Of a stretch of 64,000 nt of DNA, positions 39,942 through 60,963 are shown piece after piece; position 1 is the first letter of the stretch; each line of letters begins with the position of its first letter. The notes beneath the pieces are model-generated. The model was not told where the DNA came from, searched no databases, and was given only the letters and a program-made list of their open reading frames with translations. The stretch is from assembly GCA_041288095.1 (NCBI GenBank), contig JBGGMJ010000158.1, positions 1 through 64,000 on the forward strand, given 5' to 3'. Made by a program: the position numbers and the translations under genes. This stretch comes from Myxococcota bacterium (GTDB lineage Bacteria; Myxococcota; XYA12-FULL-58-9; JALHOP01).

Positions 39942-40851
39942 CGGTCAGGCGAGGCGCCGCGAGCGCCACGCCGATGCCTCCCAAGACCGCGGCACCGCCG
40001 AGCACGAGTCGCACCGTCGGGTGCTCGCCGAAAGCGAACACCGCGACGCCGGCGGTGATGACCGGCTGCAGGTTCATGAACATGAGCACCTGCGTCGGGC
40101 TGAGCTTGCTGAAGGAATACGACCACAACAGCGACATCAGCGCGCCGCCTAGTGTGCCGAGGAGCACGATCGCCGTGATGGTGCTCGAGGTCAGTGCTCG
40201 CGCCGTGGCGGTGAGATAGTCCCAGTCGGTGGCGATGGCCGCCGGCAAGAGCAGCACGGCGGCGCTCGCCATGCGGTAGACGGCCACGGTGAACGGCGCG
40301 TAGCGTGTAAGGGCGCGCTTCTGCAAGAAACCGCCGAGCGCCATGCCGAACGCCGCGGCGAGAACGACCGCGTCGGCGACCAGATCGCCGCTCACCGCCA
40401 GGTCACCGTTCGACGGCCAGACGAGCACGATGACGCCGGCCAGAGTCGCGGCCGCGCCCAACAGCTTACGTAGAGAGATGGGCTCGGCGCGCAAGAGGAT
40501 GCCGAGCCCCAAGCTCCACAGAGGCGTGGTGGCGAACAAGATGGAGACGCGCGCCACCGGACTTTTCGTGAGCGCGTAGGCCAGCCCAACGGTCGTCAGG
40601 CAGAAGGTCATCAGGCCGACGAAGGCGAGCGACGGTAGGTCGCGTGCGCTCAAGCGCATCACCTTGGCTCGGCCCATCGCCATGCCGCAGGCGAGCAAGC
40701 AGCCCGTGCCGACCAGATAGCGCAGGCAGCCCAAGGAGACGGGAGGGACTTCCTTCACCGCCACCTTGAGCAGGAGCGTCGACATCGACGCGCACAGCGC
40801 CGCCCCGAGGCACGCCAACAAGGCCACGAACTCTTTGGCAGTGCGAGTCAC
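39910..40851 (-). CDS. EamA/DMT-family transporter, probable exporter for the PKS product
   Basis: About 10 TM helices in two EamA repeats; GTG start overlaps the TGA of the last PKS gene. Confidence 0.88.
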   Translation of the reverse strand: MTRTAKEFVALLACLGAALCASMSTLLLKVAVKEVPPVSLGCLRYLVGTGCLLACGMAMGRAKVMRLSARDLPSLAFVGLMTFCLTTVGLAYALTKSPVARVSILFATTPLWSLGLGILLRAEPISLRKLLGAAATLAGVIVLVWPSNGDLAVSGDLVADAVVLAAAFGMALGGFLQKRALTRYAPFTVAVYRMASAAVLLLPAAIATDWDYLTATARALTSSTITAIVLLGTLGGALMSLLWSYSFSKLSPTQVLMFMNLQPVITAGVAVFAFGEHPTVRLVLGGAAVLGGIGVALAAPRLTVIAVPSQRLP

Positions 40852-59900: not shown

Positions 59901-60963
59901 CCACCGTGGCTTGCGCCGGCACCTTCACGGTCAAGCCGGCGCGGTCGAGGGCGCGCAGCGCTTCGTGCATGGCGTCGAGCTCGGACGGTCCGGTGCTCGA
60001 AGCGAGCCAGGTCTCCTTCGGATGCAGCGCCTTGCCGATCTCGAGCAGGTGGTCGCCGGGGCCGATCTCGATGAAGATGTGATGGTCCTGAGCCACCACC
60101 TCGGACAACGCTTCGCTGAAGCGGAGTGGCTCCGACGCTTGGCGCCCGAGCAGGTCGTGCTGCCGCGTGTCGTCGCGGCGCCGCGCCAGCAAACCGCCGG
60201 TGACCGACGAGGCCATCAAGGTCCGCGCCGCCTTGAAGGCCGCCTGCTGGAGGTCCTTGGTGAAGGCGTTGGTCACGGCGCGCATGAGCGGCGAGTGCCA
60301 AGCCCGCTGCGTCTGCAGTGGACGGCAGATCGTGCCCTGTGCTTCGAGCTTGTCGAGCAAGACCGTCATCGCGGACACGGTGCCCGACAGCAGGACTTCG
60401 TTGGCGTGATGCACGGAAGCGACGAACACGTCGTTGGCCAAACCCAGCGCCGCGATCACGCCTCGGGCCTCGCCGGCGTCGAGCTGCGCCAGAGCCTGGC
60501 GTCCCGCCGCCGCGAGATCGCGGCTCAAGCGCCCGTGCGCGACGACGAGCCTCCAGGCATCCTCGAACGACAGCGCGCCCGCCGCGCAAGCCGCGGCAAA
60601 CTCACCCGGCCCGTACCCGAGCACGATGTCGGGCTCGACGCCCCATGAGCGCCACAGCTCCACCAAGGCAACCTGCATCGCGAAGAGCACGGGACCTTCG
60701 CAGTGGGCGGCGCTCCCCTCGGGACCGTCGTGAACGCCCTGGCCCAGCGCCGAGACGACCGCCAGACCAACATCGGCGTTCGAGCGCGCGCAGCGGGACA
60801 CGGCTTCGCGGAAGACCGGATGAGCCTGATAAAGGCTGGTGCCCATCCCGGCGTACGCCGAACCGTATCCGCTAAAGAGGAATGCGACCTTGGGAGCCTT
60901 TTTTTCCGACATCGCCTGGTCAGGTCTCGCTGTGGAGTTTTCGCCCGCGTGAATCGGCGCCAT
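53980..60963 (-). CDS. Type I PKS: AT(inactive) - ACP - KS - AT - DH - KR - ACP - docking
   Basis: Loading AT GYGPG; ACP LGLDS; KS DTACSSS, EAHGTGT, NIGHTE; AT GHSIG and RAFH (malonyl-type); DH DHRV...P and HPAVLD; B-type KR LDD and NYAAAN; ACP MGLDS; alternative start 60912. Confidence 0.95.
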   Translation of the reverse strand: MAPIHAGENSTARPDQAMSEKKAPKVAFLFSGYGSAYAGMGTSLYQAHPVFREAVSRCARSNADVGLAVVSALGQGVHDGPEGSAAHCEGPVLFAMQVALVELWRSWGVEPDIVLGYGPGEFAAACAAGALSFEDAWRLVVAHGRLSRDLAAAGRQALAQLDAGEARGVIAALGLANDVFVASVHHANEVLLSGTVSAMTVLLDKLEAQGTICRPLQTQRAWHSPLMRAVTNAFTKDLQQAAFKAARTLMASSVTGGLLARRRDDTRQHDLLGRQASEPLRFSEALSEVVAQDHHIFIEIGPGDHLLEIGKALHPKETWLASSTGPSELDAMHEALRALDRAGLTVKVPAQATVAAREVPAAEPVEERETRGPVVEHTPLAETLVGAPVNERVELLRAQIRNQVGRVLGLSQPKPLKLDQPFRELGLDSMMTIDLWVRLSKDIGRELDPALAFTYPTIDALAEYLSRESFATRIASAGKRRASDDDIAIVGMACRFPGGADTPEAYWQLLHEGVDAVSEVPRDRWDSRKLYDPDQSAAGKTITRWGGFLREVDRFDAGFFSISPREAISMDPQQRLLLETAWEALESSGHSPQQLRGSDTAVFVGITYADYYQRWGSLAERPGRYDLYAATGNTNAITAGRLSYFFDFRGPALALDTACSSSLVALHMANAALRRGEASLAMVAGVNLILSPETTVNFSRARMMSPDGRCKTFDARANGYVRAEGCATIIVKKLSDAVRDGDRVLAVVRGTAVNHDGRSNGLTAPNALAQQALVRDALDAANLSPNDVNYVEAHGTGTPLGDPTELQALRAALTDETPRETPLVVGSVKTNIGHTEAAAGLAGLMKVVLAMQHDEIPKHLHFENLNPHIPTAGLPIQVPARALPWPRGAKPRVAGVSAFGFSGTNAHVVLQEAPLPPAERVTVERPLHVAAVSARSPEALRRVAQRLGERLRDSTEDLGNVCYTANAGRAHFEHRAAMVVGSTAELREKLAVIADGGVPAAAQVGQIVSGSDRPRVAFLFSGQASLYRDAGRDLYETQPTFRRDLDRCAEILATKLDVPLLDILFPKTEAQAGLILETRYGQPALIAFELALAGLWRSFGVEPDAVLGHSIGEYAACCVADAMRLEDVLPLVTTRGALMQRVAEGRMVSVTADEATVRELLRGQHEGLAVAAINGPKSIVVAGPVAGVVAFAADLERKHIKSKMLDSTRAFHSSMLDPMLESFEVEAGRVEVEQPRIPVVSNLTGQMYWRRKDELPNGGYWKRHAREAVQFAAGVKTLVDHGCTIFIEIGPRATLLGPASECVDRPDLAWLPSLRRSAGAWEQLLESVASAYARGVEVDWQRFDADYSRRRVALPTYPFERQRFWVDPPNMSGEKSPQSGSAHPLLGQRTDSPLGIVQFDVELGGRNLGYLADHRVQDKIILPAAGSLEMAVAAAEAAGGKRRWVLENIRFVKAVVLSESQTRPLQMVFSAPVGDSREFQIFSRPSDLRVWEGGAWTLHAAGKVAPATGEDETVEPLASLRARITRRVEASQHYATMTAMGLKYGPAFQAVTESFHDEERGEVLVRIAERADELAAEPHVLHPAVLDAVFQAFSAAGDKRIASSGSFMPINIERLTVYRGLRGPAWGFARVRQGGTAAGSRILLGDVFLFDDSGALVASASGMRSLRVEELVIDDALREPRELIHDVVWRRLPPASAQVGSQRWLVFCDHGGIGDALADLLEQRGHRCVRVSTGERFAPTRNGFELRVAEADDYAALVQATAHGSEPLHGVVHLASLDASLANSQEAPLDLEAGHVSGCRSAVLAAQALVRAGVSPQLVLVTRGAQAVGVAVGLPPAVGQAAMLGLGRALQVEHPELQCRRIDLAPGSDATQAAHWLAGELAVTGETEVALRSDGRYAPRLVARTTIGPRMPFSCRPDGTYVVSGGLGGLGREVSKWLVQRGARHLLLVGRRDPSAAEDAFIAELRASGAQVHVSSTGVTDPVAVRKLFADVKATMPEVRGVVHVAGLLDDGIFAELTWPKMTRVMAPKVQGAWNLHINTVGLPLDFLVFFSSVSALWGAAGQANYAAANAWLDSLAQARRAAGLAALSVNWGPWNAGMAATGGAKAERRWRDQGLAMMQAREALPALEHLLVEKATHAAVFAIAERGRFLEHQQRGFRTLFDEWEHEAPPASSAPQPISIAKPAAKASGLIEQLAAAPGSQRLPLITGFLQKIVRKQLGGDASQRLSPQQPFMDMGLDSLMLANVRRELMAAVGKSLPVTIGFDYPTLEALATHLADDVLGIEKSAPEPAPAAKEDVVAALLDRMATLSDSEAEALLAAKLGGLRE

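Follow-up and report, generated by a model that had tools for sequence, protein, structure and literature searches.

OzmC of the oxazolomycin polyketide synthase (PKS) of Streptomyces albus JA3453 is described as unique among methoxymalonyl loci and as a 'candidate' discrete acyltransferase (AT) for module 11 (PMC9057759), and is listed elsewhere as a confirmed AT (PMC6164871). OzmC and the dehydrating bimodules exemplified by hangtaimycin (PMC8456789) are already known, both from trans-AT systems. Inactive ATs in cis-type lines likewise have precedent, in irumamycin (PMC11672594) and colibactin (bioRxiv 10.1101/567248). Here we describe a small PKS of a Myxococcota bacterium, encoded in a window of 64,000 nucleotides (bases 1-64000 of contig JBGGMJ010000158.1, hereafter C158, 75,132 bp; assembly GCA_041288095.1, 5.85 Mb, 89.98% complete), in which four of five AT positions have lost their catalytic residues. 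From its sequence features, we put at roughly 0.6 the probability that the AT-less extending modules are loaded in trans by an OzmC-like protein of the ketosynthase III (KSIII) fold, encoded inside module 2.

The PKS genes belong to an operon of 18 consecutive minus-strand genes (71915 to 39910), encoding, in order, an FkbK-like protein, a short FkbH, an acyl carrier protein (ACP), a type II thioesterase, an ABC ATPase, two FtsX permeases, a LolA-like protein, a 329-aa protein, a further ACP, a long FkbH, PKS1, PKS2, an acyl-CoA dehydrogenase, the KSIII, PKS3, PKS4 and an EamA-family transporter. The seven leading genes lie past the window end, and so outside the view of the initial annotation, which was made from the window alone. 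The ketosynthase (KS), AT, dehydratase (DH), ketoreductase (KR) and ACP domains and the two genes lying inside module 2 are arranged as follows:

53980..60963, minus strand, PKS1: inactive AT-ACP-KS-active AT-DH-KR-ACP
51359..53983, minus strand, PKS2: KS (Cys-His-His) and pseudo-AT, first half of the split module 2
50182..51348, minus strand, acyl-CoA dehydrogenase (FkbI/OzmD-like) inside module 2, 35% identical to the gene in the OzmD position
49217..50185, minus strand, OzmC-family KSIII-fold protein of 322 aa (Cys116/His279/Asp284), between the module 2 halves
43169..49204, minus strand, PKS3: KR-ACP (end of module 2), then KS0-inactive AT-DH-ACP (module 3)
40848..43172, minus strand, PKS4: KS (Cys-His-His)-linker-AT remnant-ACP, with no KR and no thioesterase
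60034..60882, minus strand, loading AT, full length, GYGPG (Ser to Gly; motif 60604-60618)
56956..57912, minus strand, module 1 AT, intact (GHSIG 57628-57642; RAFH 57328-57339)
51539..52303, minus strand, module 2 pseudo-AT, GRGIG (motif 51995-52009), small subdomain with the xAFH His deleted
44678..45607, minus strand, module 3 AT, full length, GSGLG (Ser to Gly; motif 45338-45352)
41235..41537 (approximate ends), minus strand, module 4 AT remnant of about 100 aa

The initial annotation had counted a single intact AT among the five positions, and indeed only the module 1 AT keeps both GHSIG and RAFH. The motif positions it gave were recovered on the minus strand, with Ser replaced by Gly in the loading AT, AT2 and AT3 and a remnant in module 4; its statements that the KSs of modules 2 and 4 keep Cys-His-His and that frameshifts are absent also stood, the KS of module 1 retaining the same residues and all four PKS open reading frames (ORFs) being open. 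Absent from it was the state of KS3, whose motif reads ECAGTGS (46259-46279, minus strand), with the first catalytic His replaced by Ala and the Cys and second His kept. KS3 His aside, the KS, KR, DH and ACP motifs are intact, the losses being confined to AT catalytic residues. The three Ser-less ATs have further lost the Gln of the GQ motif near the N terminus and the Arg that binds substrate. From the KS end to the post-AT PxYxF motif the span is 440 aa in module 1, 350 in module 2, 428 in module 3 and 201 in module 4, and the model of the AT2 region resembles a KS-AT linker plus AT core (mean pLDDT 77.5; TM-score 0.60 to CurL). A Ser to Gly exchange in OzmM-AT2 abolished oxazolomycin production in vivo (PMC9057759). 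The inactive ATs are likely retained as structural elements of the KS-AT scaffold. Thus an active AT is found in one of the three predicted extending modules, where a canonical cis-AT line has one in each; conversely, a trans-AT system would be expected to have a discrete FabD-type AT gene in its cluster and no active integrated AT, and here the integrated module 1 AT is intact and no such gene is found in the cluster.

The motif changes had been flagged as possible assembly errors. In contigs of two sequencing runs that contain DNA of the locus and carry the label soil metagenome, GYGPG, GHSIG, GSGLG and ECAGTGS were found unchanged and no indel was listed across 40800-53000; GRGIG and the AT2 deletion junction fall in covered bins, without any listed piece bridging them. 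The two runs may be the source data of the assembly itself, and are not counted as independent support. No RNA run was among those listed as containing this DNA.

Modules 2 and 3 together read KS-(AT0) / KR-ACP-KS0-(AT0)-DH-ACP, which corresponds to the KS-KR-ACP-KS0-DH-ACP order of a type A dehydrating bimodule with a His-less KS0. Because KS3 lacks the first His and stands in this order, module 3 is predicted to be non-extending and to need no AT; three extensions are therefore predicted, two of them by AT-less modules. Under the usual motif rule for KR types, KR2, which carries VVD and has no Trp ahead of the catalytic Tyr, does not read as A-type. The KR usual in such bimodules is A-type, with a Z double bond (PMC8456789), and VDD has been taken as a B-type motif (PMC11672594). 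The type A bimodules of trans-AT PKSs such as hangtaimycin share with this locus the domain order and a KS0 that keeps its Cys but not its first His; they differ in that here the KSs are of the cis clade and each bears an inactive AT, the split falls after the first pseudo-AT and the KR is of the VVD type, not A-type (PMC8456789). The OzmC target module in OzmJ likewise precedes a His-less KS.

The KSIII itself gave weak FabH matches only. Its Cys116, His279 and Asp284 are invariant in 43/43 aligned homologs (114 homologs were found), and the position of the FabH decarboxylating His aligns to Gln-Asn. The KSIII-like acyltransferases ChlB3 and CerJ have the same Cys-His-Asp triad and the same His-to-Asp spacing, and ChlB3 (Cys113/His296/Asp301) is an ACP-to-ACP acyltransferase; both act in aryl or malonyl tailoring rather than in PKS extender supply, and their sequence similarity to the KSIII is only distant (PMC9573744). 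Much closer is the gene in the OzmC position of a Streptomyces genome (G752), 35.5% identical over 324 aa (E 3e-52); this reference is not the S. albus sequence, and its assignment follows from the agreement of gene order and gene sizes with the published ozm table. In G752 the sizes of the D (366), G (287) and P (382) genes follow the table and others are close to it (H 7709 versus 7737, K 1204 versus 1202, L 2003 versus 1993, Q 854 versus 842); its OzmJ equivalent consists of two ORFs (1953 and 955 aa) against the published 2926, either a true break or an assembly error. Identity is 34-38% in all five ozm-like loci compared, and the KSIII family profile matches 30 of 401 Streptomyces-genus genomes, with an ozm-like extender operon in 5 of the 17 lower-scoring places examined.

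As expected of the OzmC family, the KSIII shares its operon with FkbH, ACP and two dehydrogenases. The likeness to ozmBCDEFG and OzmJ extends to the acyl dehydrogenase beside the KSIII, the glycolate-extender operon and the His-less KS after the target module; the oxazolomycin PKS differs in being of the trans-AT type, in using OzmM as a discrete AT for malonyl and in having an O-methyltransferase (PMC9057759), whereas here the KSs are of the cis-AT clade and carry AT relics, malonyl is supplied by an integrated AT and the operon has no O-methyltransferase. Prediction of a complex between the KSIII and the module 2 linker/pseudo-AT scored 0.00 in two runs, a result that is counted neither for nor against an interaction.

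Relatives of the KSIII were then sought in a species-level genome set, yielding 318, of which the best 80 are the basis of the locus counts. Many of these loci are closely related, and so are not independent of each other. A KS lies within 10 kb in 69/80 loci, and a tblastn match to any window AT was obtained in 1/80. One of these KSs ends its ORF; among the 68 remaining post-KS stretches, Pfam Acyl_transf_1 was matched once, by a sequence reading AYGFG, ACP 66 times and a condensation domain 62 times, and GHSxG occurs in none (0/68). The pseudo-AT alignment, made after removal of one duplicate and of the seven rows that lack the end motif, has Gly at the Ser column in 60/60 rows. Where measurable (61/68), the KSIII-linked pseudo-AT spans 242-318 aa, against 440 for the intact AT, and these sequences align to AT1 without its small subdomain (profile probability 99.8, the profile containing the window AT2 row). 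The AT2 type, with Ser to Gly and the small subdomain gone, thus recurs in KSIII-linked modules of Actinomycetota, Bacillota and Bacteroidota. At least two cassette genes are found near the KSIII in 51/80 loci and at least three in 46/80. Within the Myxococcota, a profile search with five candidates scored per genome found no OzmC-like gene in 400 other genomes of the phylum. Of 61 metagenome KSIII loci, 19 include a KS and a single one matches AT2 in part; a plasmid search gave two Streptomyces matches. The same three phyla hold a large family of nonribosomal peptide synthetase (NRPS)-PKS lines with an OzmC-type KSIII and a KS-pseudoAT-ACP-condensation module, about one third of them with no hydroxymalonyl cassette nearby.

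KS ancestry was examined by a quick tree of 53 rows, with ozm as the sole trans-AT reference cluster, and by approximately unbiased (AU) tests on 26 of these rows (LG+G4). All four window KSs fall with cis-AT KSs from the same taxonomic order (SH-aLRT 99-100). Their clade comprises 11 KSs, mostly from cis-AT modules (SH-aLRT 100), and includes neither the ozm KSs nor the hybrid KSs linked to the KSIII; placing KS2 or KS4 in the KSIII-linked clade was rejected (p-AU 0.0002 and 0.010). The position of the window KSs in the cis-AT clade indicates that AT loss here was independent of that in the KSIII-linked family, and the pseudo-ATs, judged from this tree, appear to derive from cis-AT modules separately from that wider family. 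The initial annotation had proposed a cis-to-trans-AT intermediate in graded stages of decay. The cis-AT-clade KSs, the inactive ATs and the likely loading in trans agree with the intermediate; the donors it named are probably wrong, and the graded decay is not supported, since module 3 is predicted to be non-extending, the AT2 type recurs in three phyla and the population variants in AT2 and AT3 are synonymous in 5/5 cases. Across 40800-53000, 24 of the 28 listed variants are synonymous and 4 non-synonymous, and in PKS1 the 25 picked from 40 listed comprise 23 synonymous and 2 non-synonymous, a pattern compatible with purifying selection. No orthologous cluster with intact ATs was found among 21 other genomes of the order. 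The inactive ATs mostly have functional explanations within the operon, and the line likely works rather than being in decay.

The genes for the putative extender unit stand at the head of the operon (contig numbering):

71049-71915, minus strand, FkbK-like dehydrogenase, past the window
69974-71044, minus strand, short FkbH, past the window
69699-69947, minus strand, FkbJ-like ACP, past the window

With the acyl-CoA dehydrogenase inside module 2, these would make hydroxymalonyl-ACP. An O-methyltransferase (FkbG/OzmF) is not encoded in the operon and was not found on C158, a 46% homolog being located on contig C51; its absence from C158 makes hydroxymalonyl a likelier unit than methoxymalonyl. 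The KSIII would take the hydroxymalonyl group on Cys116 and pass it to the ACP of module 2, and probably to that of module 4, by a ping-pong mechanism as described for ChlB3. Module 1 would extend with malonyl through its own AT, followed by reduction and dehydration. Module 2 would then extend and reduce, KS0 pass the chain to ACP3 and the DH dehydrate it to a 2-hydroxy-enoyl, that is 2-oxo-acyl, intermediate, the domain order being that observed and the chemistry predicted from it; module 4 would add a final unreduced unit. The least secure step is the handling of a glyceryl unit by the 329-aa protein, its ACP and the long FkbH, either as starter, in place of the inactive loading AT, or as release partner, there being no terminal thioesterase; the two are about equally likely. 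Three extensions would give a short and highly oxygenated product, probably exported by the ABC/LolA-like set or by EamA.

Several points weigh against loading by the KSIII. The status of OzmC itself varies between the sources, from 'candidate' (PMC9057759) to confirmed (PMC6164871). The window KSs fall outside the KS clade of the KSIII-linked family, so that the pattern of this family would transfer to the locus by analogy and not by descent, and 27/80 KSIII loci have no cassette gene within 10 kb, the family thus not being tied to hydroxymalonyl. The AT of module 1 has RAFH in place of HAFH and could be an acceptor of hydroxymalonyl-ACP in its own right, in the manner of ZmaA-AT (PMC6164871). 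In the congener G002 a similar pseudo-AT module (GQNVG) occurs without any OzmC-like gene and with discrete genes bearing ATs nearby, probably on the far side of an assembly gap, which points to other rescues within the genus. Finally, the population variants are few and linked, and the genome is only 89.98% complete.

That the module 1 AT loads all extending ACPs in trans, with malonyl or hydroxymalonyl, while the KSIII has another job, is in our view unlikely. ClbC is the bearer of the atypical AT of colibactin. A colibactin reconstitution with ClbB, ClbC, ClbI and malonyl-CoA, for which neither ClbG nor FabD is listed, gave product (bioRxiv 10.1101/567248), from which we infer cross-module loading; a structural model of irumamycin suggests that T12 reaches AT11 (PMC11672594), and the RAFH variant of AT1 would also fit. 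Such loading leaves unexplained, however, both the OzmC homolog inside module 2 and the occurrence of the KSIII family beside Ser-less modules in 68/68 cases. Cross-module action of this AT, one of the donors proposed initially, thus does not serve as the general explanation, and may still apply to module 4 and to the loading ACP.

A little less probable again is a KSIII acting as release enzyme, joining the beta-ketoacyl chain on ACP4 to glyceryl-ACP from the long FkbH in a condensation that yields a tetronate or butenolide, with AT1 loading the extenders. RkD performs such a condensation in RK-682, and FkbH, a free ACP and a KSIII form the tetronate signature. The operon holds all three, and the line ends in a KR-less module without thioesterase. 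Nevertheless, the neighbours of the KSIII homologs are short FkbH, dehydrogenases and modules with a condensation domain after them (62/68), a setting in which no release is needed, and 0/80 loci match the long-FkbH N-terminus or the 329-aa protein. The triad is Cys-His-Asp, and it is the neighbourhood, without a direct RkD-type sequence comparison, that is set against release.

Loading by an AT from outside the cluster, either FabD or the AT of another megasynthase, as proposed at first, is improbable. Searches of the genome (G000) with Pfam and TIGR00128 retrieved only the window ATs and that of one NRPS-PKS, which is divided between the ends of two contigs (C150/C55), so that neither a free-standing AT nor FabD was found in the 89.98% of the genome estimated to be present. 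No stand-alone FabD above the curated cut-off was found in it or in the congeners G001, G002 and G003, and all FabD-like matches in G003 and in the 97% complete G001 fall within frames longer than 1300 aa, the best in a PfaA-like protein. The incompleteness of the assembly, the matching PfaA-like megasynthase gene of G000 cut at a contig end (C110), the split NRPS-PKS AT and the discrete AT genes of G002 would leave room for such a donor, which in turn would account for neither the cassette nor the KSIII. Simple decay of a silent cluster, which four inactive ATs, the His-less KS3 and a 329-aa protein departing from its family at conserved sites might suggest, is highly improbable given that all ORFs are open, that the variants are mostly synonymous (all five in AT2 and AT3) and that only AT catalytic residues were lost.

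Returning to the KSIII as loader, ClbG, which serves the atypical-AT modules of colibactin, and ZmaF are discrete ATs with an ordinary AT fold, whereas the candidate loader here has the thiolase/KSIII fold. The colibactin (bioRxiv 10.1101/567248) and zwittermicin ZmaF/ZmaA-AT (PMC6164871) systems share with this locus AT-bearing modules and an ACP-bound unusual extender from a separate enzyme. On a wider reading, held tentatively and at somewhat less than even odds, trans-acylation would have arisen independently in a cis-AT PKS, where recruitment of a thiolase-fold loader and a hydroxymalonyl cassette mid-module was followed by silencing of the ATs, and where a dehydrating bimodule of trans-AT style was rebuilt from cis parts; OzmC would then be the only one studied among a widespread group of extender loaders with the KSIII fold (318 loci in the species-level set), which serve Ser-to-Gly pseudo-AT modules. 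In a library without most subscription journals, no paper was found on an OzmC-type enzyme serving cis-clade modules or linked to Ser-to-Gly pseudo-ATs, and a full-text search for OzmC and acyltransferase returned two reviews only. The bengamide cluster may be a further look-alike, on which the literature search gave no paper. The interconversion of cis-AT and trans-AT lines has yet to be explained, and in this small line of three extensions both states occur in four reconstitutable proteins. It is as well a direct test case for OzmC-type KSIIIs as true extender loaders: if they are, hundreds of clusters now read as AT-less or broken would gain a predictable extender, and a small discrete enzyme placing hydroxymalonyl on AT-null cis modules would serve PKS engineering.

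Three genes between the LolA-like gene and PKS1 may handle the glyceryl unit:

62969..63958, minus strand, LnmK-fold double-hotdog protein of 329 aa (fold and family profile)
62654..62953, minus strand, stand-alone ACP-like protein (GLDSLG motif; without Pfam match)
60979..62694, minus strand, long FkbH of the glyceryl-ACP transferase/phosphatase family, with N-terminal extension (TIGR01686 E 1e-84; DLDNTLW and SCR motifs); its start codon is probably a few codons downstream of 62694

The 329-aa protein had no match in Pfam and no sequence match in the PDB. The best structural match of its model (pLDDT 95.5) is LnmK, with a TM-score of 0.71 to 4HZP, and the family profile matches only LnmK in the PDB; TIGR04098 is matched by 67/69 aligned family rows and not by the window protein itself. 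With the LnmK acyltransferase/decarboxylase it shares the double-hotdog fold and an adjoining free ACP; it differs in a low identity (14%), in having His for the catalytic Tyr, the nucleophile of LnmK, and in its company, a long FkbH instead of beta-branching genes (PMC11350588; PDB 4HZP). The residue in question is His54, where 63/69 family rows have Tyr, in a column aligned to LnmK Tyr62 in a region that scored only 2 bits; because of this substitution, LnmK chemistry cannot be assumed. Ser238 likewise stands where 67/69 rows have Arg. An exhaustive search gave 103 homologs and a word-index search none (0). Clustering at 50% identity leaves about 100 groups, which make up a divergent LnmK-like subfamily; a small set of its members (3/69 rows) has His for Tyr.

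One homolog (P0177) is a natural hotdog-long FkbH-ACP fusion and another a hotdog-ACP fusion. The gene occurs in 4/401 genomes of the phylum, near a modular PKS in 4/4 and with a long FkbH in 3/4. The trio of LnmK-fold protein, ACP and long FkbH likely acts either in starter supply or in chain release: its position just before the inactive loading AT suggests a glycerate-derived starter, and the long FkbH of G002, fused to a condensation domain after the last module, suggests a role in release. A literature search found no paper joining glyceryl, FkbH, butenolide and hot dog fold. The sister cluster of G002 comprises a LnmK-fold gene, LuxC/LuxE-like genes, a fatty acyl-AMP ligase (FAAL)-ACP-KS-pseudoAT(GQNVG)-DH-KR-ACP protein, KS-AT-ACP, the condensation domain-long FkbH fusion, an ACP-FabA fusion, AT-ACP-methyltransferase, EamA and similar regulators.

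The remaining operon genes are:

68926-69693, minus strand, type II thioesterase, past the window
68222-68914, minus strand, ABC ATPase, past the window
64754-68235, minus strand, two FtsX permeases, past the window (contig numbering)
63975..64000, minus strand, 3' end of the LolA-like gene (the operon continues on the same contig)
39910..40851, minus strand, EamA-family transporter, final operon gene, with a 39% homolog in the congener sister cluster

Across the four genomes of the genus, the best FabD-like match lies in a PfaA-like megasynthase of about 3100 aa with a fused phosphopantetheinyl transferase (PPTase) domain, beside a carboxyltransferase-like gene, and the AcpP gene on C34 has no adjoining fab genes; fatty acid synthesis in the genus may follow a Pfa-like route of type I. 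The C150 and C55 ends carry an NRPS-PKS, adenylation domain (A)-peptidyl carrier protein (PCP)-KS-AT on one side and AT-ACP-aminotransferase followed by condensation domain (C)-A-PCP-C on the other, with the assembly gap inside the AT, and a third FkbH-like gene lies near base 2000 of C150. Upstream of the operon, C158 encodes at 71990-75132 a response regulator, a hybrid histidine kinase and a PPTase cut by the contig end. In the window, a DUF1592/1588/1587/1585/1595 protein and then a DUF1552 protein are encoded at 12790-15822, and a signalling block at 17010-28204 has two sCache/HAMP histidine kinases and a TonB-dependent receptor on the plus strand, and a response regulator-HDOD-SpoIIE protein and a double substrate-binding protein on the minus strand.

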